DNA of 64,000 nucleotides from Catajapyx aquilonaris (GCA_000934665.2 JYFJ02001401.1:1-64000); one strand, 5' to 3'. Shown: positions 19,705 to 45,157, counted from the stretch's first letter. Notes: a model not told the origin generated them from the sequence alone. A program made the numbers and translations.

Positions 19705-19739
19705 TTCTAATGGTTTCCTTTTTTCCTTCACAGGTAAGT
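19705..19739 (+). other. Recursive splice site (ratchet point) candidate RS1, junction 19733|19734
   Basis: TTCTAAT branch point (19705-19711), tract GGTTTCCTTTTTTCCTTCA, then CAG|GTAAGT: a consensus acceptor abutting a perfect donor. There is no AG between 19625 and the acceptor. Confidence 0.75.
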
Positions 19740-22593
19740 GACCGTGTTATTCAACCGTCTCTTGTGTCAACACTCTCTGGTCGTCTACGGGTAGGCTATT
19801 TATGGTCTATTGAACTCTCCTTATGCAACGACTGGCACAAAGCAGCAGGGACGACAGGTGCTCGTTTTGATAATTTGTTATAATAATAGCTGCAAGCCTG
19901 CAACAACAATAAACAATCATTCTTTGAAATGTTCGTGCATCTGTAATCATGGAATTATGGTAAATCATATATTAGTCGTGCACTATTTATTACGCTATAT
20001 TTGAATTCATTCAATAATTCTGTAGTTAACAATACCAATTCCTGTTCAACCAGCCACTAGTCATGATTATGATAACACTTGCATAGAGCCTATCATGTAT
20101 AGAAGCTAATATGATATAAAACACAGTAGACCTGCGAAGGGTCTCTTCTTTTTAAAAGTAGAAAAAAAAATTGCCCTAACGTAAGGCCATACTGTATTGG
20201 ATGTCAGCTTAATGCATCTTGGAAACACTCTCGCTCCACGGCGATGTTTGCTATCACTTTATATCACTCAGATCTTTACACTAAAGAGTAGTTATGGTCC
20301 TCAAGCAACGTTCAACACAGCCTCAGTGTTATATACTTGGCGTTAGTTATGAATGTGAGAGGAGAAATCAATGCGCAGTAAAATAAACCATGGACCTTTC
20401 CCTGTACCATTTAGTAATGTTTTTTTTAACCACCCCAAATTTATTAAATGGAACAAATAGCGGAAGCGATACCGTGGCTAGTTGAACAAACCTTTTCATG
20501 TAACTGTGGTATAGTTATCCGACCACTGGAAATGTCGGTTTTGGGCCTTTTGGGACCCACCACAGGATTTGTAACAATGCGGAAAGTAATAAAGCGGGCT
20601 GAGAGGGAGAACCTGCCATTTTTTAAGTATACGTATACTCCAGCTAGGTGAAAGTTTTTCGGATCGAATTTTGTGCGAATAGCTAGTACTGGTTATTAAT
20701 ATTCATGCAAGATGTAGAGTGATGCCTTAGCATACGCCCTAATTTCGGGGAAAGAAGTTTCATTAGCTAATAGAGGACCGGAGGGGGCGGGTGGCGAGTG
20801 AGAGACTGTTTTGAGACGCTGTTAGTGGTGCTTTTACCTCGTTTAATGGCCGCGGGGATGAAAGATAACCTGGGGAAAAAATTGTGAAAGGTCGCGTAAA
20901 TTTTGCGAACTTGACTCTTGCAGTCAGTGGTGGTGACAAGAACTTTGAAAGGCGAGGGCTGATAACTCATTGTGTAAGATGAGTGTTGGAATTTTATGGG
21001 TTGGAATTCACACGATTACTGCTTCCTCTGAAATGTCTACTAGTAGTGTAGTTAGTGCTGATGAAATCTTAGAAATCGTAATAAATAATGAGAAACTTAT
21101 AGCTAGGTAATTCCTGTCATATCGCTGTTGCGACTGAGAAAAGAAATTTATTTTCATTGAATTTGCGTTTTACACGAACCTGCACTATCTAATGATGAGC
21201 AGGCCATACGCTATGAAATAATAACGTTTTTTTCTGGTAAAAACTGGGCTTTTGTGCTGTACTGTCAACTGACGAGGGGATGAAAATGCGGGAGGTTCAA
21301 TTTAGAGCGGTACATTTACAGTTTTTTAAATATTTTTGCTTGTCAGGTCTGGTTTGGTGCTTATCTAACAGCCAAGTGGGGGACCGAAAAAAAGCAAAAT
21401 GACTGGTCCAGTGCGATATATGGTGATCCGGTTAGCCTTCGGCTGATGAAATTTTTGAGTTTCAACATCTGCTGAGCCTCTCTCTGTTGTGAATATCGAC
21501 TCCTGCAGATAATTACATACAACTGCATTAGCACCGGGAACGATATTAGGTCGTGATGAGGCTAACATAACAGGAATTATCGGAATTCCATGTCGGTGGA
21601 AAGCATCCCCCTCTCCAATCCTCCCAGCCCCCTGTTTTTCCGGGTGGGTTGTTTGGTTGGGGGATCCGGTGAAGAATAGAAGACGTCACAGTGGCCATAT
21701 CTCATGGAGGCTTGTGTAACGGCCTGGGATAGCCGCCGCGGTATCAAACTTCACTCGCTCGAAACCCACCCTGCATGGTCCGGATTCCCTCCAAGGGCCT
21801 AATGTAAAATGCCCGTTTTTCACCGTCCCGCCTCTTTATATAGAGGGAGAAGAGAGAGAATGGAAAGAGAAAATAGAGAAGCGGAATTCCGTGACTAACT
21901 TTCGACGCAATAAACAACTGGGCTGGAGAAAAATACTGGAGGCCTGCTTTTAGAGTGTACTTGAAGGAGAGAGAAAAATCGGATTCTGAAAAGGGCGATG
22001 ACTTCACATTTATTGTGGTTATGACCCGATTGATAACCATCATTTAGATCGAGGGACGATTTAATGGAGCGTGATCATGTACTAACAAGATGAATGACCA
22101 GTTAGAGCAGGAGACACACTGAATTTTAAATTGGCTCCGAATTACCCTTCCATGAAATGGAGCAATTTTGAAATAGTAGAGAAGGAACGTCATATCGATT
22201 TCCGTAGTGAACTAGACAAAAACGATCTGCTGATCAGTAAAAATTACAGAAACGAGTGTACTGAAAAGGTCGAAGCATGTAATTTCGACATCGTTATCTA
22301 TCACAGCTGTAGCTGTTTCTGCCGTTTTGACTGCTACTCTGACCATCGATCTGGCTTTTTAGCTTGTAGCCGGTTTACCACAAGCACTAGATTGGCATTT
22401 AAGCTTGAGTAGAGAACATGTCATTTAAGCATGTCGAAAAATTGTGCAACACTGTTCCCGTGCTAACGTTCAAAAGGTTATTGCACTGTACATATAGTGT
22501 ACTGCATATCATTTTACTTGATTATTTATTATTCGTCAAAAACCAGAGAGTGGATAATAAATTAATCCTTGCTTTGTTCAATGTTAATGTACA

Positions 22594-22627
22594 CGCTGTA
22601 AAAAAAATCGCTGTAAAAAAAATCGCT
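22594..22627 (+). repeat. 15-bp tandem duplication CGCTGTAAAAAAAAT x2
   Basis: Exact adjacent duplication plus a partial third copy. Confidence 0.9.
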
Positions 22628-25144
22628 TCAATTAATCATAATGTATTCTGGCTGTTGTTTCCAACTGGTTGCTCCTCTTTAACCTGGTTGCTGGGGACAA
22701 AACGTCTATATAACCCTTACATCCATTTCTAGTCGGTGGCTTGAGTCACCCTGTACAAAGAGTCATGCCGAAGCACAGGGATTAAATTTGCAAGCAGCCA
22801 CAAAGGTTCTAAAAAATTCTATTTGCACTACTTCACAGTAGCAGAATCTCCCATTGCATTACCCCCTCCCACAGAAACCACAAAAGCTTGTGTGAAATTT
22901 CTGTCACACGCAGGATAAAGCGGCCAACTATTGTTAATCCCCGCAGTCAATTGCAGAGAATCTTTTGTCAACATTGCATATATACCTCTCTAATTGGCAT
23001 TGGCCTCATTAATCCTATAGCGATGCTGCAATCCGCACTTACTAATAAGTAATTAATTACGCCTATACGGCCGATATATGCATCTCCATGGACACGACTG
23101 ATAAAATCTCCCTCTGGATGTAAACTTTCCTGAATGCGATAAATTCTCACGAATCGGGCGTAATTTTGCAATCCTAGCGTAATCCCATTCCGATGCAGTA
23201 CAGGGATTTTCGTATTTTCCGATATCGCGGGGAAAAAACTGCGGGGCGTGATTTTATACAATCGTCCCAGACACGAATCCGATTTTGCGGTAGTTTTGCC
23301 GCGCCAAAAAGAGGCGTGGATAAAGGATTTTTTGGAAGAGTTGCATTTAATCGCTTTTTTGCACAAGTTCATGTGAATTTCCACGTTAGGTCATTCCAGT
23401 TTTGCGAACCTCTTCATTAGAGTTTTAGCACGTTTGCGGAATGTGTTTTACATCCAATGTTCACATTTTTGTACGTGGAATTTCGCAGTTCTCGCAAAAA
23501 ATAAATGCCCTTTTGATGAATGTCCGACTTGTCCTGCGATATATGTTGCGTGTGGATTTCTTCGCGCAAATATTGCGATATGTGTCAAATCATAATTGAT
23601 GCGTATTTGATGGCCTTCTTTTGCTCTCTTTTTTGGAGAGGACTGCTTCCAGTGCAAGTTAGCAGATAGCGTGGCAGCTTTGCGAATCTGGTGTGGAAAA
23701 GGGCTTGTGCTGCAGTGCCGACGTTTTACGATTGGGCCAACAGATGGCAGGAGAGCTGTGTGCTGATTCGGTTTTATCCGGGAGCCCGAATTGGGTTGTC
23801 CCCGGAAATTGGTTGATGCAAGGCGGTGAACAACATTAGTGGCCTGCGTGATGGAGTAATAGTTTTTCCAAACAGTTTCTCTACAACTTTTGGGATTGAC
23901 TATGCTGTGCAAAGCCCAAGAGGTGCAGTTTAAAAAAAAAATCTTCATCCTGAGCATGTATGCAACCCAAGCGCTTCTTTTGAGTTGCAGTGAAGTGTGA
24001 TTCCAAGGGGCTAATATGGGCTTTGCCGTCACGAAGCTACAGAGAAACTAATAAGCACAAAATTTTAAAAATGCTACTCCCTGATTTTTAAAAAAATTGG
24101 CCGATGCAAGGTATTATGTTATTATCCGGAAGGAGGCTGAAATAAATCGGATTTATGACTTTTGGAAGCGTTGTATAAATTAATGTGGACATCAAGATTG
24201 TGGTGTGTGATAAATTGGAATTGCGCAGTGACGTGTGGGTTTGTCGTTATTTAGGAGCGACGGACGTAATAACAGTTTATTACCACATAAATGGCGCACT
24301 AAAAGGCCCAAATATTGGAGTTTTAAGTATCAACTATTGGCATTAAGTATGTAATGAAAGCAATATTGCACTTTTCATATCAGATGAAGCTTTGTACATA
24401 TTTATGGATAGATACTGGTGCACATACCTATGCATAGTTGCTTTATCTCCTATCGTCATACTAACAATTTTTCAGCCTGGACAAAAAAAAAATGTACATC
24501 CGTTTTATTTGCTGCAAATTTTGATGGCGCTTCTTTCGATATGCTTTATCAGTACAGTTGATGTAGAGGTGTACTTAGGCTATCTTAAGATGAAAAGATA
24601 AGAAGTCTCTAGTATGGATCCGTCTTTTCGTTTGGCAAACTCTGGCACACACACAAAAAAGAAACACTGGAGTTAGCAAGAATGCCATCTGTGAAGAGTT
24701 TGCGAATCCAGGTTTGGTCGCCTGACACCAGATGGCTTCGGGATCAATAAGTCGGATTTAGCGTGAAGATGACATTTGTTTTGGTTCTCTCTGTAGTTTG
24801 GTGTAATTCTGCGTTGTTTTACACATCCAAATTGTAAAGCCCAATGCATTTATCACGTCCATAATTTCATTGCAAGAGTTGTCAATGTCTCGGAAATTGT
24901 CACATGCATGTTGCATGTAATATTAAACGGCGGAAGTCATGAAAATGTCAAATTTTCCTTATTATTAAATGATTTGAATTGAGATATTCAAGCAGTCATA
25001 ATTATGTCAACTATTAGTACTCACTGTTTAAATATTCGTGGCGTTGCCGTGACCTTTAAAGCAGTTTGGGTTGTCTGGTATTGTTTTGACTTTGAATTAC
25101 CTCAGTGTCAGTACACAGAGTGTAATGCGATCCAATTATGATAT

Positions 25145-25229
25145 TGGTGCCCTCAGCGGGAAAACGAACGAGGCTGCGTCTAGAGAGCGTTTCAGAATGT
25201 AGCTGACAGCTCAATTCGCCTAGATAACC
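25145..25229 (-). pseudogene. Degenerate tRNA-like / SINE-head remnant
   Basis: Minus strand reads TAGGCGAATTG (A-box-like) ... GTTCGTTTTCCCGCTGAGGGCACCA (T-arm/acceptor-like end). Stems pair poorly. Confidence 0.25.
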
Positions 25230-28200
25230 TCCACAACAAATATTTGCACGCAACTAACAGTATTGTAAACACCTGCCGGTCACATTATTGTTTCCAGATC
25301 ACACGGCACATCATTTTAATGCAGCCCAATTTTAGGCGCACACTAATGATTGAATAACAATGCTTAGTACGTGATGGTAACGAGCAATGAGACCATCTGC
25401 ACTGAGAAGTGATGCACGTGACACGAAACTTATATGGAATTAACAGTTATTCTGAGCAATTATTTTGCGGTGTACGTGGAAATAGGCAGGTCTGGCGCAT
25501 CGCGGTTTGCGCATTTTGAAAAATAGGACGCCAACTTTTATTTGCATTCGGCCCTGTCAGGCAGGCTTTATAAACTGGTTGTTTGCGGACCCCATATGGA
25601 TCTGCAGTTAATTCTACCAATGACTGGCTATAAATCCGGATGTCCCAGCCAGTTTCAGTCCGGTTCATTTGAAACTAGATCTCGCATCCGGAGGAGAGAG
25701 GAGGGGAAAAAAAAGCAGAGAATCCAGAAATAAGGCTTGCTGGCTTTTCCTTCCTGTTCATCTATGGTGCATATTCGATCTCTGCTGCCGCCACCATTAT
25801 TCACGTCTGGGGACTGGAAGCGGAAAGTATTGGGGGAAAGAAAAGAAAAGGAGGCCTTGGCCCAGTGGCCCAACTGGCGAGTACTTGTCAACTGAAAACT
25901 TAAAATTTTGGCTCGGAAACCGATCTTTTAAAAAATCGAACCTCCGGAGTAACTTCCCGCCTCTGATGAAACCCAGTTCTCAGGGATAGGTCCGCATATA
26001 CGAATCTCAAAAGTAGCCATTACTTCCAAGAAGGGCTTAGCACCGGTTATAATGGCGTTTTCTGCTGAAAGTTAGTCAGACCCAAGTCCCAGGTCGTGTC
26101 GGGGGGCGAAAGGATGAGATCAAAGGGATTGTGGTGTAGTCGGAGAGTGGAGGAGTGTATAGAATGAGGTCGGAGGGCAAATCGTGAGGGAAAAGGCAAG
26201 GGGCATGGCAGCGTGACAAATTGAGTTAGGAGGAAGTAAGCTGGGCGGGGTCTCGACGACGTGGGGACCCAGTAAGAAGAGATGGTAGCTGCATTTATAA
26301 GGCGAGGAAGTCATTTAGTCGGCGGGGTATATGATGGTTCTCGGATTCAAAAGGTGGCTGGGCAACTCAGACCATATTGCAACACGGGGGTTCCCAGTTT
26401 TTGACGCTGGTAGTACCATGAATCAACTGTGGTTGTAATGTTCCGAGAGCCATAAATAATAATGGTCATAACGTTCAATTTGCATGTAGCACATCCGGAC
26501 GTGCCATTTAGTATTTTCTGGCCGACTTGTCTGTTATCATGCGTGTAAAGCATGATCTACAGTGCTTGCAGTTAGCTGGTAATAGTCGGGTGTAAGCCAC
26601 GCTGTGAAAATGAGGAAATGTGATCTTCAGAGCGTTGTAAGTATAGAATATTCTGGTGTGTTTCGGATCTTGCGGGGAGAGGTAATTAACTGCCTAGATA
26701 CCAAGGCTATATAGGTAGGGTTGAACAAAAATAAAGAAGCATGGAATAAGTTGCCTTATCTAGACTACAGTAAGCCGCTTTTGTTACGGCTCAAAGTTGA
26801 AACTTGAAGCAGTTCTAAATTGAGAGGTGGGGCTGCGATCTTGAGTAGGTGCATTTTTTTTTTTTTTTTTTGCTTCAGGCGAGAAGAGATTGCTTAATTG
26901 CTAAATGGCGCCTTAATGAGGGCTTCGTTATTGAACTGGGTGCTAGGCGTGATAAACACCACACAGCCTTAATTAAAGCATTAGGCTATTTTCGGGGAAT
27001 AATTATGAATTCGAAGCGATGGGAGGGAAGTGGATGATGTTCCACCAGCTTCTGGCAAACTTATGCCAACCGCGGGTCATAAATGGTGGCGATGAAATGA
27101 TGGTGTGTCATTAATATCAATCCGGGATTACGCGCAAGGTAATCAACTGGCGATGAATTTGTTGCAGTATCTAGTCTAGCCGCTGTGACTCTCCTGATAA
27201 TGGTCGGATGCAAGGATTCTGGATTAATGTACTAAATTTACTGCTCCTTGTTAATATTTGATGCAGTATTAAATTTACAGGAGGCGAAGTTACAGGACCT
27301 GACTTGCCCCTCTAGCCATCATCCCTTTATAATTAATTGACTTTCTGTTTATGATCCTTATTGAACGCTTATTGAACATTCAGTAAACATTAAAGTATGC
27401 AAAACTGAAACAGGAGTGAGGCGAGCTGATGAATTAGTGAGTCACAGAGCCTTAACTGGAGCTACTGCAACGCTGCCTTGTGTAATAATGATTTGCTTAA
27501 TCCAGAACTAATCACTTGTTCTGGGTTTGCCATCAATCACGAAAGCGGCCCGAAATACATGTAATTTAATAAACATCTTTCCTGCTTCATGGGGAATTAA
27601 TGTGAGGACCACCTCGATTCCTTTGCCTAGAACAAAGTCTAAAGCACCACTCTAGTTACAAGACTGAACCATTGTTTCTAGGGTATCGAATTAACACGCT
27701 GTTTTTTTCCCCCCGAAAAAGGGAATATTTTTGTTCCATCCTCTGATTATGTTCTAGGACGAGGGAGTCTTCTATGCCTCGCAGATAGGGTGTGGGTAAA
27801 AACCAGAGAAAAAAAAAGGCCGAAAGAGTTGAGGCAGAATCGATAAGTCAGTGAAGGGAGAGGATCTACTTAATGGTGGTCGTCGAAGCGCGTGCAATTT
27901 CCGAAGCAGACGATGCCGACTGGCACACAGAAGCCACCCCCTTCTGAAAAAAAAACCCTCCAAAAAGGAGAGAAAAAAACTAGGAAAAGTTAGCGGTGGT
28001 AGGAGCATCCATGGGATACCCAGAAAATGATGTAAACTTGATGGACGTGATGATACTGGCCGCTGAGGGAAATTAAAACTCGACGTTTGATATCAGTTTT
28101 CAAGGGAGTTTGAGGGCCCAGCCGTTGTCGTTTTTATTGGAGCGAAGCCTCCCAGAGTTGTGGATGTTGCAGAACACTCCCATGTGCTCTGGGGGGAAAA

Positions 28201-31200: not shown

Positions 31201-33808
31201 CAGCGGGGCTCGAGTTCATTACCTGCTCTGGGCTCCCGCACTGCATTCTGGGTCAAGGAATAGCAGCCACTACAGAAAAGCCTTCCGGATTACATGCATC
31301 CTACTTCATTGCTGGAACGTGGAACTTGACACTTGGCTCACATAACGGGGCGAAGTTGCACTGGAACTTGACTGGGAACTGATTAGTTTGCACAGTGGAG
31401 TAGTAATGAATTAACACTGCTGGGCAGTATATAGAACTGTTACGCGAGCCTCTGCAGGACTCTGGGGCCCTGGATTGCAGTATATAGGACTTGAATCAAG
31501 TGCCCCGGTGGAACACGAAAGCCGTATTTCATATCAGAGGCCGTTATGATGGAGTTTATGATAGACTGTAAAAATCATCCGACCTCGTTCGGATAACAGC
31601 CTGGACAAAGAGAGTTAACTGTAACACGGAATGGTACTGAATGTAAATTAAAGACCTGAAATGCAGAACGATCAGCGTCACATTTGACTGGTTTCGAGAT
31701 ATGTCATTTTGAAGATCGTATTGTGAGACAATTATTATTTTCAAACATTACTGTAATTCCTGTGTCAGAAAACTGACGGTAACTAGATAGAACGTGTGAT
31801 GGTTGTGTGATGGGCTGCATTATACTCAATACATAACATCAAAATGTGACTATGATTATTCTGCATTTCAGATGTAGCCTACGACACGACGGCACGTGAA
31901 TGGAAATTCGATAAATGCATGCACCTTATCACTTTTTACTTGGTTATCAGATTACATATCGGAGGCAGTACAGTACTTGTCTGTATACTGTAATTCTGAC
32001 TTTTGTCCCGTCACTTGCGAAACAGCAGAATCTTTTCTGCTATTGTTTGGAACTGTGCTCTTTCAGAAGACTTATAAAGATCGTCACGGTTTATTGCATC
32101 TCAGAATCTTTGGGATTATTACAGATATAGGGAAGGGGAAACGGCTATGACCATTATATTGGAAGGGAACCATCACGGATAATGTTTTGTTCCATTCACT
32201 GTGGCGTATACTTGAGTTCAAGTATTCACATTATACAGCAGGAATGGATAGGATGAAATTATATGAGTGTTTGTGATATATCCTTTTAACATCAGATAAT
32301 TGCTCGCTGTACTGTAAGTGTGGCTGTTATACTGTATGTGTCCTGTATGCCACTGTAGGTGAGAATTTAATGCGACGGCTAGTCTATATGTCTGCTGTAC
32401 GCGAGGAGCTTTGTGACCACAGTAATGTATCCAATTTCACACGGATGTAAGTTCGTTGCGTTATAATGTTACAGCTCATGTTATATGATATGCAGAAATT
32501 CTCACGCCGAAGTGTAAGAGTAGGCTGCTTTGCGGGAAACCTCTGATATTCGATGTTACTCTAATTCACCGTCGATGAATGATTTTTAGACGATTTTGTG
32601 AGAAGGATTTTAAATATCTATCACTCATAGGTCTCGGAATTATTTTCTTTTACTCTTCCCTTCCACTGCCTTTTCTGCATTAAACAAGAGGAAATATGAA
32701 CAGTCTGCATGGATATATAATGTCTTCTATAATATATCATTAATAATTTACTCGTACTTGATGTATGGTGTCATGTTGAGACGTAAACAAGAGCTTTAGT
32801 TTCACGTTTAATATACTGTAGGCCTATACTGTGGGAGGGCTTGGCGTGACTTATAAAAATGACTGTATGAAATAAGCTTTCAACAGATGTGTCTATATCG
32901 TTAGGTTAATACTGCGGGGAACGAAATGAAGCTGAAACCTGAGCTTTATGACGTTTCTAATTTGTTGATGCCTGAACTTTGAGATAAAACTCCACCGTAC
33001 TTGGAGTACTTGTCATTCCAAACCCCTGCGAGTTGAAGACGAAAACAATCCGGAAAGGCTTTTGTAAACTGATTCCCAAGCTGGGAGCAGACTCGTTAAG
33101 AATATCATTTCACTGGAGGAAAAGGAATTGTTGATCATAAATGAAAGATGATCTTTTCGCTTTTCTTGTCCCTCTTTGCTGTCCTCCTCCTCCTCCACCT
33201 TCTTCCTCCCACTCGATCTCTTTGATGCAAAGTGGGCCGCAAATTAGGAACTGTGCAAGAAATCTTTTTCCTCTCTCCGGAAGAAGTTTAAAGTCCCGCA
33301 GGAGGGCGACGGGAAGAGGAATCTGACGCAATTCCTGCAAATGGCGTCTCCAATGTAGGCCTACTTTTCCACTTCTGCCATCTTTTACCCCTGGGGATCG
33401 GTCTCTCAAAGGACTTTTCTGCTCAGGACGCTTACCTAAGTTGAGAGAGAGAGAGCTCCCTGTAACTGTGTTTAGGGAGGGCTTGCAGCGGGGACCGTGG
33501 AATTAGAAGCAGTCGGGAGGAAGAGGCTAATGGTCGCCATTTTAGCCTAATCATACCGCAGGTGGTGAGGGGGCTAAGAGGGGAAAGACCCCAACTGGTT
33601 GTGTTATCATTCAGATGGGCGCGGAATATCTTAGTAGCTTCAGCCGTGCAGGATGACTACGGGATGCCAGGGGTTATGCAATTACTCTTTACTTTACGAA
33701 CTTCCGGGAGACTCGCATCCGTAACGCCATGAAAGGGTGATCAAAGCTCAGCCTCTGAAAGAAGACGAGGGGGAAAAAAATGCCAATGCGGTACCAATCG
33801 ATCTTGTC

Positions 33809-33828
33809 CAACAACAACAACAACAACA
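33809..33828 (+). repeat. (CAA)n microsatellite
   Basis: 6-7 perfect units. Confidence 0.9.
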
Positions 33829-36800
33829 GAGTCAACCCTCAAAAAAAGGAGTATTACCTCCATGAATCTATGTCGAGGCGACACATTTCTCATTAGTGAC
33901 AAATAAGTTCCTTTCCTATCATCAGCCAATATGGCACAGAAATATGTCGGATAAGTCACACTGAGAAAAAGGGCGGATTTCAATGCTCTCAGATTTTTTG
34001 AGATTAGTCGTAACCCCGTTAGTCAAGACCTGACTTTTTTTTTTCTTTTTGCCGTCTCCCAATTCCGGCATTCAATAACGATTGGCGCAACGAACCGAAC
34101 TGTTCCCTAATTGAGAATAAACTTCGGGAGTCCCAAAATTGGAAAAGTTTTTGCATGGTCTATTGTTCGGGAGGGGAGTGGTGATAGATATGCGTTCCTT
34201 TCAGACCAATATAAAGTGGCGGCTGATGTTATGAGCAGTGGCCGGATAATTCTCCCAGCCCTCATCTACCTCCACCCCCTTTCCCCCCCGAAATTAAAAC
34301 ATCTGGAGTTGTGGATATCTGAAACCTTCCTTCCTCACAGCGCCATACTGATAAAACCTTTCGAACTTTTAATTTATTTTCATTCCCTCTATTCCACGTA
34401 GATTGATTTTTCTCGTCTGGCTATAAATTGGACCTGAACCGGACTTTTATTGCTTTCCAGGGGGACCCAGAGAAAAAAAAGTGGAAAATGTGTACCCTAG
34501 TGATGGTTATAGAATGGATGTGCAGTAACTGAGATAAGCCGGGTGTGAATTGTGCCCTGTGCGTTGCATTAAATCGGAATTAGCGTTGCGCAGATATCCC
34601 GTGGACCTGTCAGGAGCGATATTTAGTTCGGAAGGAATGAGCTTGCTGCTAATGACGCCCTATTATTACTTACCCATCATGTACTAATGAGTTAAGGAGG
34701 CTCATTTTAAATTTTAACTGTGATTACCCGTCATTTTTAACACTTTGTTTACGTGCAGTCAGTCTCCGATTTCTTGGTGAGACTTATAATTTAAAGTTCA
34801 TTCATAATTTCTGATTCTATTCAATATGTAAGTGCAAGTGTGCTGGTGAAATGTCACTTACGTTGGACTGCATGGATTAATATTCACTTACGGTTATTAA
34901 ATTACTAGCAGATATGGAGTGCAGTTCGGTAAAGGGAGAGCACAACATAAATGTTTATCCTAACACGGCAGGGCCACCCTTGTGGCTCTCTTGTTCGCAG
35001 GGAAGCCTGACATCCAGGATGAACATGCAGTACAGGTATTATCTAAAAAATTCTGTGCCAATATTTCTGAATTGCACCAGGGTAACTGTTAGTGTTTCAT
35101 ATAAGCATTGCTAGAACGCACTGTGCATTTTATAAAAAGGAAAATGATCCGGTATTCGGTTCTCAGATGTTGATTTTGCTCTCTCCACTTTTTGTATAGC
35201 CCGAGCTTTTTCTCGTTTTTCTCTTTTTTGCTGCAGCCGGTATGGAAAACAGGCTACATTTTGCGCATTTTCAATATTTCATCTTTGTTAACCGCGTTGA
35301 CAGGGTGTTTGTTGCCAGCTGTTTTCAGAGGCAGCTTTAGCGACTGTGAGTAATATTCGTTCCACCCGAAGGTATAGTAAATATTTATAGTCCCAGCTGC
35401 CAACACTGCGTGTGGTTACATGAACTGTTTGGGTATTAATTATGCACACTTACGCGCTCTTTGGGCTGTGCAGGACTCATTTTGCACATTGTGCTTCCGT
35501 TCAAAAAAAAAAAAAAATGTAATATGCAGTAGACCGATACGCTTGACTTTTGTGAGGCAAAAAGAGTGGGGGAACATACTCAGCGAATTGTACCGAGGAA
35601 ATGGCTCGAAGCCACATGAACTAATATATTGTGTGCGTCAGGTTGTTCATTTGCCAGAGCGGATATGCTAAATTTGGATAACTCCATCTCTCATTCCATT
35701 CCATTCACCTGAAAAAATTGGGCACGAAATACTGATTACTGCAGGCTATCACTGAGGTATCGAGTGCGAGGTAGGTTCATGAGGACAGTACTATAACATA
35801 CTATAGGACAAATTACCGGGAACATTAATTTAACCAATTATACCCTTCCAATGTTACTGCAGTGCAGATCGATCATTGGACAAAAAAATATGACATTTGA
35901 CACTTACAAAGTTTGCAAAGGATAAAGGCAAAGTCTCAACACATCTTTCTGTGTACTTCTGCATTTTGCAAGCTCACCTAGAGTTTCAGGTTTCGAAATG
36001 CATCTGGAGGTAGTGGTGTTGGTTTCTGCGGTTATTCCTGCGAGGGACTAGTTAAGGATGAAAATTTAGAGCGTTACATCCGCCTAATTTCGCATCGCCG
36101 GCACCTGGAACTGGAAGCAGCCAAGAGTAAAATTTCTCGGCGGGGGGTTAACATGGGACTGCAATTAACCGTGTTGATTTTGGCTGCCGGAGGAAAGCAC
36201 ATATATTTCCAAGGGGGGTTAAGTTTGTTGACTTCTCTAATGTTGTAATAGAGCACCCTGGTGCGTATCGGACGATATTAGTTCGGGGATATGCCGTGAT
36301 GACATTACGCGAACCTCGTCAGGTTTATTTGAGATCCGTAAAGTAGCTTTTACCTATTTTTTTGACAGATAAATGAAAACATAATGTATGGGAAGAAACA
36401 CCAATTGCAACTATACCCATTTCATTTCCACCAACTGTTGTGTATATTGTAGTAGTTTTTTTTCTTGCCTCTCCTTGAGAGGACCCAGTAACGATGCTGT
36501 TGACATCGATCCGAGTCTTTTGTCCCGCATTGTCCAATTTTTTGGGGGATTGCCTAGGTGCCGAGTCCATTAGTTTCCCCCCTGGGAAAAAGGTGAAGAA
36601 TGGCAGTGGCCTAATGCAGTGCAGCCCTCAAACTCCATGACTGGGCATGAGGTTCCTCCAATTGTCCGGATGCCGCTTCCCCCCAGCAGAGTTTGAATTC
36701 TGTTTGGATTGTCCCGGCAACGGACGTGCCCAAGCAACTCTTACTTGTCGCTCCAGCTCTTTTGTCCCTTTCCATTCCCGGGCCTTAGATATATTAACCC

Positions 36801-38929
36801 TGACAAGGCGTCTTTCGCAGCCTGTCCTGCACTGCCCAGCACTATTCAGAATCAAGATGGTCAGTCCCTGCGAGAGTTTGAATGTATAGTGGAAGTTTTA
36901 AGCCTGGTTTTATGCCCGGCTATTGATCCGCAAGCCCTGTACACACTGGCATGGATGTCAGGTCTATGGAAACTGCACTTTTTTGCGTTGGCGATTAATC
37001 AGAACACTTTGATACAGGTTTCCCGTTTACAGGCCTGACAGACAGGGACATAGGCCCGGCTTTGATGAATGCGCAACGAATTGTTTGATACCATATCATC
37101 CTCCCTCAGTGGGATTTTGGGTCTGCGCGATGCATGCCGTAATCCTTTTGCTTATAAATTATGCTCACCAGTGATGTAGCGCTTCTGGCATTTATTTTGG
37201 CTTCTTGGGGATACGCCAGATGTATAGGAAAACTTGGTTTCTGTGTAGTTCCGGTCTAGGTTTATACAGTTTCAGGCTAGTCGGCTTTGGATTAACTAAC
37301 CTGGGAACGGTAAAATTGGATCCAATTAGCTCATGTCATTGCTAACAAATGGTAATGCCTATAGGTCTACACCGTCACTGAATTTTGCTTTAAGGTGTGG
37401 GCAAACGGCCATGAAAGATCAGGAAACTTGAATACATATGCTGCTTACGAAAGGCTTGCCATGCCGTTCAGAATATAGACTACTGTAGTACTATGATATA
37501 TGCTACTTCAAAAGGCATTTATCACTGTAACTAGATTTGCCTGCCTGGTGACATTTGTACGTATAATAATCCCCAGGTGCCCAGGAACTCACTGTGGGAG
37601 ATTCCTGGAATCCATGCCGAATATCCTGTTTCACATCAAAGCGAATTTGAAAGAGAGCCAGAACATCTGTCAGAAAACGTTGCCTTTCCAGCGCCACGAG
37701 TTTGACTTTGTGCTGTGCATCAACACGCTATTACCATCCCTTTTATGAATCTTACATCACGTTAAATTTGTTCATTTTGAGAGGGAAGGTGTACAGTATC
37801 AGCTCAGTTTTGATCAAAGAGTCTGACTTCTCAATTATTTTACGAAGCTGCTCCACCAGGGAGGCCTTGCATTGAGGCAAAAAAATAGAGAGAGAGTAGA
37901 TATGACACTGACATGTTGAATCTAGCCCTCAGGTATTTATAGCATTGTACGTATAGGAGAAAGTTACTGTATCATGAGATACTTGGTAGGCCTTTGTACG
38001 TAGATTATTAAGTTTATGCATTTATTAAGTTGAGAAGATTTTGAACCCATATCATCTTCACTCTGATATCACCTGAGGACTGCTGCCAACACATCTAAAC
38101 AGTCTGCCTCATAGTGACAGCCCGATCTTGATGGTAAACTTCTTCAGCGGTTAGCCCTGGTTAGCCCACTCAAACTTTTTTACCTCCAGCCAACCCTCGG
38201 AAGAAAACGAATGATATTGCGAGTAAATGTGTGCAACCATGGTAGGTCTGGCCTAGTTGGCTGGGGGGCTCCATGTTTATTCCTATTAGTGGACGGGAAG
38301 AAGTTTTGGTGGTTAGATCCAGTGGGCTTCTGGGGCAAATCTCTGGGGAGACCTGAGTGAAGTCGTGCGGGCTGGCAAGGGATATTTGTGAGATGGGCCG
38401 AGGAAAGGGATTCTTGCCTGCTATTTGCCGCCGGAGTTCTGCCTTGATGAAGTGCAGGGGAATGGAGGAGGGGGGTGGTTGGGTTGGCAGAGGGGGAGGG
38501 GTTCCCTTGCAGAAATTCCTACGGCGGAAGTAATTCGGCGGAGGGTTTTGTGCGGCTTGCATCCTTCCATCTGCTTGTTTCCGCCGCCTTGAAATTGAGG
38601 AGATAGACAAGAGGTGTAGAAACGCACGACTCCGCTTTTCTGATGCAGGAATGTAACGACGAGTGTTACGGAGCATCCAGGCGTAATATCCCACTCTCAC
38701 TCTCTGAAATGTGCCGCATACGCCTCACTTACTTTATTGTCCTCGGAATTTGCTGCTAAAAAGAGAGATGGGGAAGGGTTCAATAATCCGGATGTTCCTG
38801 GCATAGTCACCTGCATCTTCTCAAAAAAAAAAAAAAAAAAACCCTGGGGAGTGACTTTAAGGTCCATTTTGCGCCAGATTCTCGAGTTGGCGCCAACCTG
38901 GCAGAGAGAGAATGCGCGGGAGTGTTCCG

Positions 38930-38960
38930 GGATCCGGGCTCAGTTTTGGCTCAGTAGGCC
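38930..38960 (+). promoter_or_regulatory. Possible initiator elements upstream of the 39267 exon
   Basis: Tandem GGCTCAGT motifs, including TCAGTT (arthropod-type Inr) at 38940, about 330 nt upstream of the ATG. Confidence 0.25.
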
Positions 38961-39266
38961 TCCGGGAAGGGAGTCCGGGTGCGGATCTCCCGGAGATTGT
39001 CATCTCTATAGAGCCACCACCCTCTGGTTGTTGTCACAGTGGATGCGGTTCCCTCATTGTGGGGGACTAATTTGATTTTTATGTGGACGTCCTGTTCCGA
39101 GTGCGCTTTGTTTGTGTGAGTGGAAATGTTGCGGGAAGTATAGTCCGTTGTGGGTAGTAGCACCTAGCGAATACAATGTTGTGAACAGGTGTTGTGTTTT
39201 TGGTGTGTGCGTGAAACATTTCGACCGTGAGGTCACCGCAGTGACCCTCTCGGGAAAGTGCGGGCC

Positions 39267-39617
39267 ATGGACCCAGAACCCCCTACCTCTCCCGAGTCAC
39301 CGGTGACCCCCCAGCCTTCTTCTCTAGCCCATTTGAATGGTTTTGCGACAGCCCCTGGATTCTTTTTTGGCAAGCAAGTAGGAGACTGTAACCCTGCGGC
39401 CACCAGAGCCGCAGCAACGGCCGCGGCGGCCGCGGTGGTGGCCGAGGCTCTTTCGGTGGACAAGAAGAATAATTGCTTGGACCCCCGGAGACAGCTGGTT
39501 GTGACCCGGAGTTTGGGTTCAATCCGGAAGAACCGGCACCTGTGCGGAAGCTTCTCATTGGCTGGAGACACCATGGAAGGCATAATCCAGTGCCTGGTGT
39601 TCCTAAAGGCCTTTTCG
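39267..39617 (+). CDS. Probable first (or alternative first) coding exon of a large + strand gene; 117 codons, MDPEPPTSPESPVTPQPSSLAHLNGF...AAATAAAAAVVAEAL...MEGIIQCLVFLKAFS; product unidentified
   Basis: GC-rich open frame starting at GGGCCATGG (ATG 39267), with a second in-frame ACACCATGG (ATG 39573). Pro/Ser-rich and poly-Ala composition is typical of regulatory-protein N-termini. It ends at a codon boundary in TCG|GTATGT (donor GT at 39618). I saw no strong acceptor just upstream. Confidence 0.7.
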
Positions 39618-41786
39618 GTATGTGTTTGAAAGGGGGGGCATTAAAATTGCAGATGGAAAGGGTCGGAGGGGGGAAAGGGGTGGTGTGGGTTCTTTTTTTT
39701 ATTCGGTCGGAGTGCCCCCTCCCTATCCTCCCCTTCTGTGTGAAAATCGATATATCTCACTTCAGGGCTCGGGGAAGATGTTCCGAGGAAAAATGGGGAC
39801 GGTGGCCCATTAGATTTAGTAGGGCGAACGTGAGGGTGAAGCGTAGACATGTTCATTCTTTTTAGTCGGTGCATCCCATCATGTATAGCACAAATGGGCA
39901 ACACTGTGCTTTTCCTACCCAATCAAGCTTACCCACACCAACTCATCCGTAATTGCTACTGGGCAAAGGCTGTCACGTTCACTCCCAGTGCTGCCAAATG
40001 GTGCGTGGTTATTTCTCGCGGTTAAAATATTGTTTCCCGAAGCGGCATTGTTGTCGTTATGGTACACTGAGTGTGAAAAGTCTCGCATCGGGCCGGGCTT
40101 GTGCATCGGACGTCTTCTATTATCCGGCTGGATGGAAGATGGCTGTAGTGGGGAAAGTAGTTGGAAACCGGCCGCAGTTTCTGGTTCAATCAGGCCCCGC
40201 CGGAGAAGTTGTCGTGGACAGGGGCTGTGGAAAAGAAAGGGGAAAAAAGGGGGAAAAAAATCCATCCCGCTGATTTACTGGGTCTTGGTTTCAGTGGAGT
40301 AGAGCTACGGGCTTCTCTCTTTTGACGGCCTCCACACCACATAAATAAAGCTGTGGTTTTGCTCCGGTTTACTGTCCGTCTTAAAACCGCACGACTCACC
40401 CAATTATACGGCCTAATAGGAAGGGGTGCATCTGCGGCGAACAAGTTGAGAGGAAGATAATCAATATAGAAAAAAAAGTGCCTCAAGGCGGCTCCATTCC
40501 CACGTTCAACTACCAAACTTCGTTGGCAGTTATAAACCGACTTGGATGGTCGCTCGTGTTTATAATTGCGACATAGCCGGAGATCTTTTCAAAAGTTTGG
40601 GCCTAACTGCCTCGCCCCGAAAATTCTTGCCCAAGTTATTTTCCCTTCTTGCTTGCGGGGCGGAACTTGAATTTGTCCTTCTCTGGTAATCAATCCGAAG
40701 CTTCACGAGTAATTAAACCTAGCACTCCGGCACTCGGCAGAAGGACAGGGTTCTCCGATATCCGCGTGTTTCGGAATGAGTTACTGGGAAGCAAAACCAG
40801 ATACCAAATCTCAACTGAGCCTAATTATAGCCGCGGTTTCTCCAGAGTGGGGAGGGGGGGTATATCACTTGTGCGGAATTTCGTCGGATCATGGCTCAAA
40901 ATATACTGCAATTTTGGTCCTGGTTGGAGGCATATCCGTCTCCTCATTTTCATCAAGGGAGCACCCACGATAACAGGAAATGAGTGGGTTTCATTGAGGA
41001 CGGAGGGGACGACATGAAAGTATAATCATATCGTCAAGCCTGAAAATTTGACGCTGCTGTATAAGAGAGGCGCAATTACAAAAGGATTCATCTTCCCGGT
41101 TCGATAGGATGCGAAAACTGGGTTCTCTCTCACCACCCCGTTGCCATGGAAATATTTATCTGTAATCTATATGCGTCAGGTTTGCAGCAGGCCGGATTTT
41201 GTGGGATAATGTGTACGTCAATGGAACAAAACTGCCGCCACATATTTTCCGACGTGTCTGTTATCCATGTAGTACAGCTATATATAGGGAAAGATAATAT
41301 CCTGAAAGGTAGGCGGCGTGATAAGCGAGCCTGTTACCATATCCTGTTGGGATAATCGGAGTACATTGCTTTCATCTATACATCTGACCTTATTTTTATG
41401 CACAGTGTGATGTTTATTATCGTCCTATGTGGCAGTTTATATGATTAAACAACTTCATTGATAAAAGTGGACATGAGCAGAATATTGGATAAGTTATTGA
41501 TTTGAATTTGCGCTAGTACACTGTTATTATGTAGCTCGAACTAGTAAACAGTGCATTAATTAGCATCCTGAATATGCAGAGTGTAAACAACTTACTGCAT
41601 AGTTTGTCTAGTTAGAGCTGGTTCAGTGCACCTAGTAACTGCATAATAAAATAACAATTTTGGGTCATTAATACTTTAATCCAGGTTGAACAGTTTGTCT
41701 TTGGAATATTTGACATGCCTTTAATATTGCGAATTTATGCCAATAAGAATGATTGGGTCCAAGTTTATTATTCTGTACCCATAGAA

Positions 41787-41953
41787 GGGTGACTTGGGGC
41801 CGGTTTCACCGAGCTTGGTATATGATAAAACCAGGTTTCTTTAGGAAAATCCATACAAATAGATAGGGATTTTGAGAAATACCCTGGTTTTATCATATAC
41901 TGAGCTCGGTGAAATCGGCCCTTGGTGGTGCAGTGGTTAACGCTACAGCCTTC
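41787..41953 (+). mobile_element. Possible tRNA-derived SINE 5' end interrupted by the 41797-41921 MITE
   Basis: Removing the MITE and one TTG gives GGGTGACTTGGTGGTGCAGTGGTTAACGCTACAGCCTT, which has an A-box (TGGTGCAGTGG) and a D-arm-like context. No clear B box. Confidence 0.35.
41797..41921. mobile_element. 125-bp MITE, PIF/Harbinger-like
   Basis: 39-bp terminal inverted repeats GGGCCGGTTTCACCGAGCTTGGTATATGATAAAACCAGG / CCTGGTTTTATCATATACTGAGCTCGGTGAAATCGGCCC (36/39 match). TTG on both flanks is a 3-bp target-site duplication. GGGCC termini and a 3-bp TSD suggest Harbinger. Confidence 0.85.
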
Positions 41954-42090
41954 AAGATATGCCAAAAAGGGTATAGTCTCGACATGCATTGTGCAACTTG
42001 TACTGACACTTGTTAACTACTGCCCTTGTTTTGTTTTGATGATGCTTCTGCGTAGCACAAGTTAGCCTACACATGTATATCTTAATTTGT

Positions 42091-42126
42091 GCTAATAATA
42101 TCATTTTCTCTTATTCACAGGTAAGC
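42091..42126 (+). other. Recursive splice site (ratchet point) candidate RS2, junction 42120|42121
   Basis: GCTAAT branch point (42091-42096), tract CATTTTCTCTTATTCA, then CAG|GTAAGC. There is no AG between 42066 and the acceptor. Confidence 0.7.
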
Positions 42127-45124
42127 GCCAGTCCTTCCATAAAACGGGGCTGCAAGCAGTATACGTATGTAATAAAACCTGAAGTAATATCTGTGGACTG
42201 CGTGGGGCTGGCGCCCAAAGATCCCCACTCGAAAAGTCGGTGGGGTCCTCTATACAGATCCGATAATAACTGCGGGGCGGTGTTCATAAAAGCGCGTTTC
42301 CCAGCACGACTTGGCGACTTCATACATGGGTGCATTTTCTTTTCCTCCTGTCGGGGTTTACCGTCGGTCGGAGGAGGAGGAGAGGCAGCGAGCGATCCGT
42401 GAGAGAGAGGAAAGAAAGCCCATTTGATGGGCTGCAGGGGCCAGGAGGGGAAAAATCTACAGTCTGGGAGCTGCGAGATTCGATAAAATTGCCACATCTT
42501 ACCGGCGGGGGAGTCGGATTTTTTCCTTCTTCGTCTTTCAAGGGAGGGGGGGAGGGGTTGGGGAAGGGGAAAAAGAGAAGGAAAGGGGGAGGGGTCGAAG
42601 GAGGTAATGTTCAGCTTTTCAAGGCAGAAATGAAAGTTCACTGTAGGCGATGGGAATATGGACTGGCATGGAATCACTCCCAAGGTGGGAGGAGGGGTTT
42701 GGGAAAATTGGGTTGGAAAATCCGAAATGTCGGTGTAATGGTTACCTTTTCCTGGTTTTGAGGAAAATGCAAGCTGGCAAGTTTGCTCATGCGTGATGGT
42801 AGTGTTAAAGGTGAAGTTTGTCACAGCCACAAATTAGGACACTTCGGCTGTCACCTGAATTATTTAATGGAACTGTAAGACAGCAGTTCCTCGAATTCAG
42901 TGGACATTTAAAGGGGTAGGGGGTTTGTAAATATATACAGTAAATTGCGAGGAATTGTACTGTTATGATGCACAGGGGGATCTCTAATGCATTAGTTGCG
43001 TCATGGTTAGACCACAGCTGCACTGGCTGCAATAGTGACTAACGCAATTAGCGAGTCATAGCTGTAGTCATGTGGGTGAAATTGATTTATAATGGTTAAT
43101 GCCCTACAAATCTATGGTTATGAAAGGTGACGTTGTAAAAGTCATGATTCTAGAAATTGAGCGCTGTTTTTACGTCAACGATTGCCATTGAATGAGGGCG
43201 TAATTTTGCATGCACATTATAATATTGCGCAACAATGCGTCCGATAATCCATTGATATCCTATGAACATTGTTGGTCATTTATGCGCCTTTCCATATACG
43301 TCAAACACACTGTACCGTATCTACTTTTAAATAGTTCACGTACCTTTCCGGCGATAATGCTGCATTATTCAGGGCATGCGTGTAATGTATACCTTGCATT
43401 ATGCAGTGTGTGCAGTGAATACATGAGAACTATAGTGATTCCAATATTATGCGTCCTGATGTGATGGCTGATGTCATGACATTCTCATGGTTTAAAACTA
43501 GCTTACGAGTATTACGTATATAGTAATGATTTTTAGATTCGCGTTATGATTTTTTTAACCAATTTTAGGAGCTATGCCACATTGGATGATTCTGTACAGG
43601 CTTTGGATTTTATCGGCACATTAATCAGACTCTGTGTCCCATTCGATATCGGCCATTGTGCCTGGTGCAGGCCACCAATAAAAAATCGGCTAAAAGAAGC
43701 GAGTGAATAGGTGCTTGGGATTGCAAGTTGCATCCTCACCCACGTTGAGATCGGAAGGCGATGGCCATCGCCATTTCAGCGTCTCGAATGCCTGGAAGGA
43801 ACGGAAAAGGAGAAGGAGAGAGAGAGAAAAAAAGAAGTGTAGCTCCGAGAAGACGCTTCTGCCCAAAGAAAATCCAAAAGAAAAACAGGCTTCGGTGAAG
43901 TGCCAGGATTCCCTCGCTGGGTACAAAATCAACCTCTCCTAGCTTCTTCCCCCTCAGGGTTTTTCTTCCAGGAGAAAAGGGGGTCGCGGATGACACGGTT
44001 TGGAGTGAGAGAGTCTTTTGGAAAGCATAGGAATTTTTTAATCGGCGGATAGTTTCCCTCCCCCAACTTGTCAAGTGTCGGGTTATTCCCTAAAAAATCT
44101 GCCTGGGAGCGTAATTAAATTTCTTAATGAAAGCTTAAGGTACGAAGGCGAAAGAGGAAAATTTCCGGGCTGGTTAATCCCCAGGCAACAAAAGACGAAA
44201 GCCTCCGGGATGATGGAAGAGGATGCTCTTGCTTTTGCCGGAAAATCCGGGTCATGTTGTGCAATAACCGTTCGCTTTATCGATCTCGAACGTGTCTCCA
44301 CGATGGCCAATATCGCTCCCTCATTATCGGCTAATTATTGCTCCTAACGGCATCGTGATTAGATAGAACGGATTAGCCAAGTCATGTTGCTTCAACTTTA
44401 ACGGGGATAATGGTACAATGACGGTTATTGTTATCGGATGGCAAACTTTGTTGATGATATAAGTTTGAGGTTTATCATACCTTCAGATTGTGACAGGTGC
44501 GGTTGGGTTTACTGTTCGTTCTTTTCTTTACTGAAAAATTAGGGTTAATGGTCGAAACTCGTCAAATCCCCACACCATTAGACACGGGACTAATCGAGCC
44601 GTCTAATCGAATAGCAGGGCGATTTCGGAATGTGCGAATTGGAGGGGGGGAACTTCGCATCTGCATTTTAGCAGTATTGGAAATGAGTCCTCCCCGCTGC
44701 GAATGGTCAAATGGGTGGGTGGGATGAATTTTTGGAAGGGAACGAGATGGAAGTGGGACTTGGTAATGCGAAATTTATTGCGGAAAAGAAGGCAGTTTGA
44801 GGGGCCTGGAACGGTCAATAAAGGCGATGCGCGAAGGGCGCTTTTGCGTTAGTTATGCAGCGGGCATGGCGAATTTTAAAATTCAGGTCCGCTATCAAGC
44901 CCGGCAGAGTCGGAAGTAGGCCGAAAGGAAATGGAAGGGGTGCTGGAAAAGGGGGGGAAATAATTTTTTGGAACTGGGAAGAGAAAAAAAGAGATGGGGT
45001 GAGAATTCTGTTCATGTCTGTGGGATGATATTGGGTGATGTAATTACAGTGAAAATGGCAGATAAGCTCGCAATTTCTCCAATTCGTGGCTCCTGGGCGA
45101 CTGAGTTCAGATTGATTGGTTGCG

Positions 45125-45157
45125 CCCCCCCCCCCCCCCCCCNCCCCCCACCACCCC
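45125..45157 (+). repeat. Poly-C tract containing an ambiguous base (n)
   Basis: Homopolymer with N at 45143; local assembly uncertainty. Confidence 0.9.

Follow-up and report, generated by a model that had tools for sequence, protein, structure and literature searches.

Two AG|GT sites lying 22.4 kb apart on the + strand of a 64-kb stretch of DNA (the window, by which we mean the whole stretch analysed) raise the question of whether they are ratchet points, at which a very long intron would be removed in steps, or something more ordinary. A preliminary description of the same DNA had proposed that both belong to the recursive splicing of a giant intron system and that, if the host was neither a fly nor a vertebrate, the case might be unreported. 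To our knowledge, the only organisms with solid genome-wide evidence for recursive splicing are Drosophila and, to a sparser extent, vertebrates.

Both sites join a complete acceptor to a strong donor

At site 1 (ttCTAATggtttccttttttccttcacAG|GTAAGT, + strand), a CTAAT branch-point motif (positions 19707 to 19711; branch A at 19710, position -24, 23 nt from the G of the AG with no AG between) precedes a pyrimidine tract and the acceptor TCACAG (19712 to 19733; 17 of 20 pyrimidines over -23 to -4). The AG at 19732-19733 closes an AG-free zone of 107 nt, and the GT at 19734-19735 opens the regenerated donor GTAAGT (19734 to 19739), which agrees with MAG|GTRAGT at every position (cag|GTAAGT, 9/9). 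Site 2 (gCTAATaatatcattttctcttattcacAG|GTAAGC), also on the + strand, repeats this arrangement: a CTAAT motif at 42092 to 42096 (branch A at 42095, position -26, no AG before the acceptor), a pyrimidine tract with the acceptor TCACAG at 42097 to 42120 (15/20 pyrimidines over -23 to -4; AG at 42119-42120; AG-free zone of 53 nt) and a regenerated donor GTAAGC at 42121 to 42126 (GT at 42121-42122; cag|GTAAGC, 8/9). The boundaries are 19733|19734 and 42120|42121, and the regenerated donors start with G at 19734 and 42121, respectively. The branch point, pyrimidine tract, and AG-free zone that had been described at both sites are thus present in the sequence, and the core TCACAG|GTAAG is identical between them, as had been stated. 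The two sites have this 11-nt core alone in common and resemble no other sequence in the window, and an origin of the sites as repeat or transposon copies is ruled out.

The host gene is neurobeachin

The sole coding exon found in the window, at 39267 to 39617, lies on the + strand like both sites, in agreement with the earlier same-strand claim; site 1 is 19.5 kb upstream of it, and the site 2 acceptor is 2,503 nt downstream of its donor (39618-42120). Comparison with related proteins identifies this exon (117 codons, ending ...GDTMEGIIQCLVFLKAFS, phase 0) as the alternative first coding exon conserved in neurobeachin, the gene known as rugose in Drosophila and connected with synaptic function. 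Its matches carry neurobeachin names and the Pfam accessions PF20425, PF06469, and PF15787, and its terminal block GDTMEGIIQCLVFLKAFS comprises 24 invariant columns across 12 sequences. The best relative is 76% identical and the named matches listed are all arthropods, which supports the proviso that the host is neither fly nor vertebrate; the host exon and gene structure are of arthropod type.

In annotated decapod isoforms and in a partial Drosophila neurobeachin-like protein, GDTMEGIIQCLVFLKAFS is joined straight to LVGGEFDMELNF; the junction from ...KAFS to LVGGEFD is direct in annotated arthropod isoforms, and no extra exon occurs there in the matches listed. The LVGGEFD partner exon is absent from the 64-kb window, so the intron opened by the exon's donor (tcg|GTATGT, 39618 to 39623), which holds site 2, measures at least 24.4 kb. 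The very long introns proposed earlier are therefore in keeping with the host, since neurobeachin is known for giant introns and over 24.4 kb separate 39617 from its following exon. No canonical N-terminal neurobeachin exon was found in the window by tblastn with 24 N-termini chosen among the 150 representative matches listed (nothing below E = 0.1), and when six of the first 26 matches were used along with these N-termini, 39267-39617 was the only exon recovered.

Candidate exons downstream of the sites

By analogy with the Drosophila model, as given in PMC8605326, each site may be followed by a short cryptic exon. At site 1, a possible recursive exon of 57 nt (19734 to 19790, + strand) would stop at cgg|GTAGGC (19791), a weaker donor (6/9); at site 2, a possible frame-shifting exon of 44 nt (42121 to 42164, + strand) would be ended by tac|GTATGT at 42165 (6/9), a hexamer identical to that of the coding exon's own donor. 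The regenerated donors (9/9 and 8/9) are stronger than these closest credible donors further downstream (6/9 at +57 and 6/9 at +44), which were picked by eye among many GTs; because downstream GT dinucleotides are common, the donors add little weight to the cryptic exons. An alternative site 2 exon of 48 nt, ending at tat|GTAATA (42169), would be in frame.

This in-frame version would also suit a different reading, which we consider unlikely, namely that the sites are starts of real exons that are at least sometimes retained, whether as cassette or poison exons, as 5'-UTR exons of an upstream promoter, or as Ubx-like expressed recursive exons; the acceptor would then be genuine and the sequence after it would be present in some mature RNAs. 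Read so that AG|GT falls between two codons, the sequence does stay open for 49 codons past site 1 and 93 codons past site 2, the latter in phase with exon 39267-39617, but the direct joining of ...KAFS to LVGGEFD in annotated arthropod isoforms counts against such an exon. The 130-aa frame through site 1 has no homologue at E up to 1 among 5.8 billion proteins, a Pfam search of the open frames gave nothing at E up to 0.1 (the sole match up to E = 1 being SPOC, at E = 0.21, in the site 1 frame), and five exact open reading frames around both sites and the exon are absent from a 15-billion-protein collection. Moreover, two unrelated exons both starting with GTAAG would be improbable unless that donor was functional, and exons with a functional donor at their start would be recursive exons again.

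The combined signal exceeds chance

The preliminary description had cautioned that a bare YAG|GTAAG arises by chance, and the counts agree: AGGTAAG occurs twice on the + strand (sites 1 and 2) and once on the - strand, at the level expected, and GTAAG occurs 40 times per 64 kb on the + strand. Its argument from the full acceptor architecture proves sound, with motif counts, decoys, and simulations all placing the two sites well beyond chance. A YAG with at least 15/20 pyrimidines is found at 53 of the 3737 AGs on the + strand, both sites included, and adding a CTAAT 15 to 45 nt upstream with no AG between leaves 7 acceptors on the + strand and 10 on the - strand; GTAAG follows directly after 2/7 and 0/10, respectively. 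About 0.004 would be expected among the seven (from 40/64000), and the looser branch motif YTRAY gives 2/34 (+) and 0/44 (-). At odds of about 40/64000 per site for GTAAG at an exon start, accidental donors are unlikely if the acceptors are real.

A composite splice-signal score, built from standard splice features only and devised post hoc with the sites already seen, ranked sites 1 and 2 first and second (41.0 and 36.3) among 202 AGGT sites on the + strand; the best scores elsewhere were 32.5 on the - strand and 32.4 and 34.7 in two reversed decoys, and neither the observed top score nor the observed runner-up was matched in any of 300 order-3 Markov simulations. The full acceptor-plus-donor signal at both sites is non-random. 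We regard as quite improbable that the sites arose by chance in intronic or intergenic DNA that has no function, a reading to which the unremarkable count of bare AGGTAAG, the post hoc nature of the statistics, and the missing TT hallmark of fly sites (see below) lend some credit. On the control strand, a fair but weaker resemblance at 33436 (TAG|GTAAGC, 15/20 pyrimidines, AG-free zone of 18 nt, no CTAAT) likewise shows that a site of the loosest kind may occur where no gene is known. Against this, the combined features of both sites exceed all decoys and 300/300 simulations, and two GTAAG among seven acceptors with CTAAT and an AG-free zone compare with about 0.004 expected.

Very improbable, finally, is that the sites are ordinary 5' splice sites ending pyrimidine-rich non-coding exons (of neurobeachin 5'-UTR variants or of another + strand transcript) or dual-use AG|GT donor/acceptor sites, since, for all that CAG|GTAAG is the donor consensus, matched here at 9/9 and 8/9, and that dual-specific AGGT sites are described in the available text of PMC10809524, a CTAAT at branch distance with a pyrimidine tract and an AG-free zone of 53 to 107 nt would be an unexplained coincidence at both sites, and the sequence, read by eye over the span of an ordinary exon 5' of either, offers neither a persuasive acceptor nor a persuasive promoter.

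Position of the sites relative to introns and transcription

The exon at 39267-39617 sits between the sites, so both cannot lie in one intron of the isoform that starts there. Site 1, being upstream of the exon's ATG, would be usable only in transcripts from a promoter outside the window. The strand skew is consistent with one + strand transcription unit over the whole window, as G exceeds C in 32/32 2-kb bins and T exceeds A in 26/32, the skew is equal (0.09) upstream of the exon and within the proven intron, and related loci have matching skew on both sides of the exon. It is this uniform skew that points to a putative promoter upstream of the window for site 1. The CpG profile has no island marking a promoter near the exon, and the whole window has no Rfam family at gathering score.

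Fourteen metagenome loci from three lineages carry the orthologous exon and were all scanned for AG|GTRAG. None of the 14 has this motif downstream of the orthologous donor, within 3.4 to 3.5 kb of downstream sequence in four loci (100% identical over the compared stretch) and 0.4 to 2.1 kb in the other 10, which counts against the ratchet reading. One weak AG|GTRAG was seen 5.4 kb upstream, in two identical loci of the 14 scanned. A relaxed scan for YAG|GT with at least 13/20 pyrimidines, covering the seven loci with at least 1.5 kb of downstream sequence, yielded one weak GTTTAC site at +410 in four identical loci. The 14 loci align to the window over the exon's last 56 to 76 nt only and are too distant elsewhere.

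Discussion

Our preferred reading, at a probability of roughly one half, is that both sites are Drosophila-type ratchet points of neurobeachin pre-mRNA that act with short cryptic exons. The recursive splicing proposed in the preliminary description gains from the architecture of the sites and from a host with long introns, and loses part of its claim to be unreported; in the isoform that starts at exon 39267-39617, the two sites do not share an intron. We envisage that, in transcripts starting from exon 39267-39617, the donor at 39617|39618 would be spliced to the acceptor ending at 42120, so that ...KAFS-coding sequence would meet GTAAGC and a strong 5' splice site would be rebuilt; this site 2 donor would then serve to take out the rest of the intron, 22 kb or more, as far as the LVGGEFD exon outside the window. 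Transcripts from the putative upstream promoter might instead be ratcheted first at 19733|19734 and next at 42120|42121, with removal of the 22.4-kb segment and skipping of the internal first exon. A short cryptic exon, of 57 nt at site 1 and 44 nt at site 2, would probably mediate recognition, as in Drosophila, and as the cryptic exon's weaker donor would lose to the regenerated GTAAG donor, none of that exon would be kept in the mRNA.

We further propose, as a tentative possibility, that TCACAG|GTAAG (versus TTNCAG|GTAAGT in flies) is a lineage-specific ratchet core in the neurobeachin gene of a non-dipteran, probably non-insect arthropod, with 42121 serving two promoters. If so, 42121 would be the first stop, 2.5 kb past the internal first exon, for one promoter and the second stop for a far-upstream one, and ratchet-point splicing of giant neural introns would span arthropods beyond flies. 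The ratchet pair is, on sequence grounds, a well-founded prediction that falls short of a discovery. If validated, such a pair in a distant arthropod would imply an ancient origin for the mechanism and its sequence code, would show which motif positions, e.g., -5, can vary, and would provide a concrete example of alternative promoters sharing one ratchet in a synapse-related gene.

Several known systems bear on this prediction. Vertebrates have few recursive sites, which often serve in the quality control of upstream cryptic exons; Sibley, in 2015, reportedly described vertebrate recursive splicing through RS-exons, and the locus analysed here is similar in involving a long neural gene and an AG|GT with a candidate exon-defining donor downstream, unlike in its arthropod-type host exon and gene structure. 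The Ubx microexons mI and mII (Hatton 1998, as cited) and other recursive exons that are expressed likewise regenerate a donor at the exon start and are kept or skipped, whereas annotated neurobeachin isoforms among the matches have no exon between ...KAFS and LVGGEFD. In the cryptic RS-exon model of Joseph and Lai (PMC8605326, in the part available), such exons are about 50 nt long and generally out of frame; the stretches of 57 and 44 nt, each ending in a donor weaker than the regenerated one, resemble them, as does the out-of-frame length of the 44-nt exon, the difference being that the downstream donors here are predicted, 6/9, and chosen by eye from many GTs.

Beyond Drosophila and vertebrates, our literature search, covering partly accessible texts, returned one motif-based case, the 230-kb intron of NPF1 in the migratory locust (PMC8892266, available in part), and no paper pairing "recursive splicing" with "neurobeachin" or "rugose." The locust case is alike in its non-dipteran arthropod host, its motif-based prediction, its very long intron, and its branch point just upstream; its site has support from U2AF65 RNA immunoprecipitation, while ours are predicted from DNA sequence. 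As this paper already invokes recursive splicing outside Drosophila, the suggestion of an unreported case is weakened.

Fly ratchet points, which are zero-nucleotide recursive splice sites (Burnette 2005 and Duff 2015, as cited; Pai 2018, PMC6110457, in the part available), provide the closest comparison. They differ from our sites in host, in having known upstream donors, as site 1 does not, and in carrying TT at -5/-6 in 196 of 197 cases (10.1101/006163), where both sites here read T(-6) C(-5) A C A G. An exception with C at -5 exists but is rare: the exact core TCACAGGTAAG is found in 1 of the 539 rows of experimentally detected fly sites (PMC6110457, supplement 1), flagged high-confidence, compared with 38 occurrences of TTGCAGGTAAG and nine of TTACAGGTAAG. 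Rugose, under three unverified FlyBase identifiers, has no match in five supplements of that paper (S2 cell data). The first segment of 2,503 nt before site 2 is a little under the fly minimum (2,596 bp) and would be short for a mechanism whose presumed role is to split long introns. Fly recursive introns span 11 to 133 kb in mostly neural host genes, with segments of 2.6 to 63.6 kb and branch points at -36 to -21 (10.1101/006163), and 63% of Drosophila introns longer than 40 kb have a high-confidence recursive site, with first introns enriched (PMC6110457, in the part available). Site 2 likewise lies in a long first-type intron (at least 24.4 kb) of a neural gene, the 22.4-kb spacing is inside the fly segment range, and the A of the CTAAT motif, taken as motif presence only, falls inside the branch range at -24 and -26. 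Both sites share with fly ratchet points a prominent pyrimidine tract (17/20 and 15/20) and the juxtaposition of a strong acceptor and a strong donor (YnNCAG|GTAAGT).

Results

Two candidate ratchet points on the plus strand, site 1 with its AG/GT boundary at 19733/19734 (ttCTAATggtttccttttttccttcacAG/GTAAGT) and site 2 with its boundary at 42120/42121 (gCTAATaatatcattttctcttattcacAG/GTAAGC), were read directly from the sequence, which matched the preliminary description of both (a CTAAT motif, a pyrimidine tract, an AG-free zone, and a common core). The branch A of CTAAT lies at -24 in site 1 and at -26 in site 2; pyrimidines occupy 17/20 and 15/20 of positions -23 to -4, respectively, and the nearest upstream AG is 107 nt and 53 nt away. 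The core TCACAG/GTAAG is identical at the two sites, with no further copy on either strand of the window; beyond this core, no similarity was found between site 1 and site 2 or between either site and the remaining window, in which repeats are nearly absent. Two stop-free frames overlap site 2, at 42043-42402 (+; 119 amino acids) and 42111-42833 (-; 240 amino acids); neither had a Pfam match, the exact open reading frames were absent from the protein collection, and both are probably noncoding.

The sites might instead be exons that are sometimes retained, which we consider a possible but doubtful reading. The nearest plausible downstream donors, at +57 for site 1 and at +44, out of frame, for site 2, each match the consensus at 6/9 positions; the regenerated donors match it at 9/9 (site 1) and 8/9 (site 2) and are the stronger at both sites.

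Chance was the second alternative. The bare motif AGGTAAG occurs twice on the plus strand of the window and once on the minus strand, GTAAG occurs 40 times on the plus strand, and AGGTAAG is not enriched; the earlier caution that the bare motif is at chance level and that the case rests on the acceptor context was borne out, the context being exceptional. YAG with at least 15/20 pyrimidines accounts for 53 of the 3737 plus-strand AG dinucleotides, both sites among them. Requiring in addition CTAAT 15 to 45 nt upstream with no intervening AG leaves 7 sites on the plus strand and 10 on the minus strand, and GTAAG directly follows 2/7 and 0/10 of these, respectively (2/34 and 0/44 with the looser branch motif YTRAY). 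On a composite score that was designed post hoc, with the sites already seen, from textbook splice signals (number of pyrimidines, match to the donor consensus, branch motif, length of the AG-free zone, and Y at -3), the two sites reached 41.0 and 36.3 and ranked first and second among 202 plus-strand AGGT sites; the best values elsewhere were 32.5 on the minus strand and 32.4 and 34.7 in two reversed decoys. In 300 order-3 Markov simulations, neither observed value was attained (maxima, 36.0 for the top site and 32.8 for the second-best site). We take the observation as confirmed and not due to chance; to judge from these signals, the two sites very probably represent genuine splice-signal composites, and coincidence is an unlikely account of them. 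The strong donors would also suit sites in dual use or simple donors that end unannotated exons, a reading that, set beside the acceptor context, we regard as very unlikely.

Two weaker sites were also noted. The sole minus-strand AGGTAAG, at 33436 (ctctctctctcaacttag/GTAAGC), follows a CT-repeat pyrimidine tract (15/20 Y), lacks CTAAT, and has an AG-free zone of merely 18 nt. As a fair look-alike on the control strand, it counsels some caution about the comparison above; it may have arisen by chance or may mark an antisense transcript. The third-ranked plus-strand AG/GT, at 17249 (ctcatcgctcttttag/GTAATT; 15/20 Y; AG-free zone, 20 nt), is not claimed as a further site because its score of 31.0 falls within the decoy range.

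The sole coding exon of the window, at 39267-39617 (+), begins with ATG and runs for 117 codons to the donor tcg/GTATGT, and both sites lie on its strand, as the preliminary description had it. The named matches to this host exon, whose fly counterpart is labelled by MDSLERLMRAAPLP, were arthropod without exception and included an aphid "neurobeachin isoform X1," a moth "Neurobeachin," Drosophila proteins annotated "neurobeachin-like, partial" and CG15464, and decapod proteins with neurobeachin Pfam domains. The final 18 residues of the exon, GDTMEGIIQCLVFLKAFS, do not vary across 12 aligned sequences, and in the decapod proteins and the partial Drosophila protein this block leads straight into LVGGEFDMELNF, the conserved beginning of the neurobeachin body. 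The named matches and this junction therefore identify the exon as the alternative first coding exon of the neurobeachin gene, called rugose in flies. The closest match shared 76% identity across 42% of the exon, so that the source organism, judged by this exon, is neither a fly nor a vertebrate, as the preliminary description had allowed, and has no close relative within the protein collection; the block of the exon (LAGD) resembles the decapod version more than the insect one (LTGD).

The exon beginning LVGGEFD, which follows ...KAFS of the host exon in annotated arthropod isoforms, was not found in the window by tblastn in which 6 of the 26 first matches served as queries; the intron downstream of 39617 is therefore, on this search, at least 24.4 kb long, and site 2 lies 2,503 nt inside it. 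The canonical N-terminal exon (...KFAVLIGL...VLNL) was likewise not found in the window by tblastn with 24 N termini chosen from 150 listed representative matches. The ATG of the host exon lies 19.5 kb downstream of site 1, which therefore cannot act on transcripts starting at this exon; it could function only if neurobeachin has a promoter upstream of the window, with the host exon as an internal alternative first exon. In 2-kb bins, G exceeds C in 32/32 and T exceeds A in 26/32, and the skew is equal (0.09) across 1-19733, 19734-39266, and the intron after the host exon; related contigs L002-L011 show the same skew on either side of their exon. In mammals, transcribed DNA is known to carry an excess of G+T on the sense strand. 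If, as we infer, this rule carries over to the present organism, the skew suggests that the whole window is one long plus-strand transcription unit; this compositional signal is the only support for an upstream promoter.

Fourteen metagenome contigs from three lineages carry the orthologous exon (one of these a clade 90 to 100% identical over the compared stretch), and their alignment to the window is confined to the last 56 to 76 nt of the exon. No AG/GTRAG was found downstream of the orthologous donor in the 14 contigs scanned (3.4 to 3.5 kb available in four mutually identical loci and 0.4 to 2.1 kb elsewhere), a result that counts weakly against a positionally conserved site near the exon and does not address sites deeper in the intron. 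Contigs L004 and L007, 100% identical over the compared stretch, have at position 348, upstream of their neurobeachin first exon and 5.4 kb from the end of that orthologous exon, a ctatcag/GTAAGA with a modest tract (13/20 pyrimidines), which was too weak to be called.

Two long palindromes and one ambiguous base were also observed. A near-perfect 125-nt palindrome at 41797-41921 (+/-), roughly 200 nt upstream of site 2, is predicted to form a hairpin whose stem measures about 60 bp (-84.3 kcal/mol; z = -15.3; 0/200 shuffles equally stable) and has the appearance of a MITE or a long hairpin RNA; its best Rfam match, mir-754, was not significant (23 bits versus a gathering score of 84). The second, at 52336-52491 (-94.6 kcal/mol; z = -12.6), is unrelated to it in sequence and sits where the window is richest in AT (GC, 0.32 to 0.37). 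The single N, at about 45000-45150 within a G/C homopolymer-like run (X in GGGGXGGGG of translations), is probably an assembly ambiguity.

Discussion

The most economical reading, to which we assign a probability of roughly 0.5, takes both sites as ratchet points of the neurobeachin pre-mRNA that work as in Drosophila. Site 2 would then serve both promoter classes, and site 1 solely the unseen upstream class. Experimentally, a ratchet point is defined by junction reads, sawtooth coverage, and lariats.

In a preprint, Duff et al. (10.1101/006163) described 197 fly ratchet points in introns of 11 to 133 kb, with removed segments of 2.6 to 63.6 kb, branch points mostly at -36 to -21, a pyrimidine tract more prominent than that of ordinary acceptors, and predominantly neural host genes. 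Pai et al. (PMC6110457) give a high-confidence site for 63% of fly introns longer than 40 kb, with typical segments of 9 to 15 kb and enrichment in first introns. The present sites resemble these in architecture, branch distance, and 22.4-kb spacing, and site 2 also in its long neural intron, in which site 1 would lie only given an upstream promoter. They may also fit the model of Joseph et al. (PMC8605326), in which a ratchet point is recognized via a cryptic exon of about 50 nt, usually out of frame, whose donor is outcompeted by a stronger regenerated donor. They differ from fly sites in that the TT found at -5/-6 in 196/197 (10.1101/006163) is lacking, because both have C at -5; among the 539 rows of the table of Pai et al. 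(PMC6110457), the core TCACAGGTAAG appears in one, a high-confidence site, compared with 38 for TTGCAGGTAAG and 9 for TTACAGGTAAG. The first segment at site 2, 2,503 nt, is also marginally shorter than the shortest fly segment (10.1101/006163).

A locust case of recursive splicing has been published (PMC8892266); a hairpin was described at its branch point, as one is predicted near site 2. The suggestion that the present sites might be an unreported case holds insofar as the organism is neither fly nor vertebrate and gives way where the mechanism is concerned: it is already known, and the locust case is in print, so that these candidate sites would be a further example of a known mechanism rather than a surprise.
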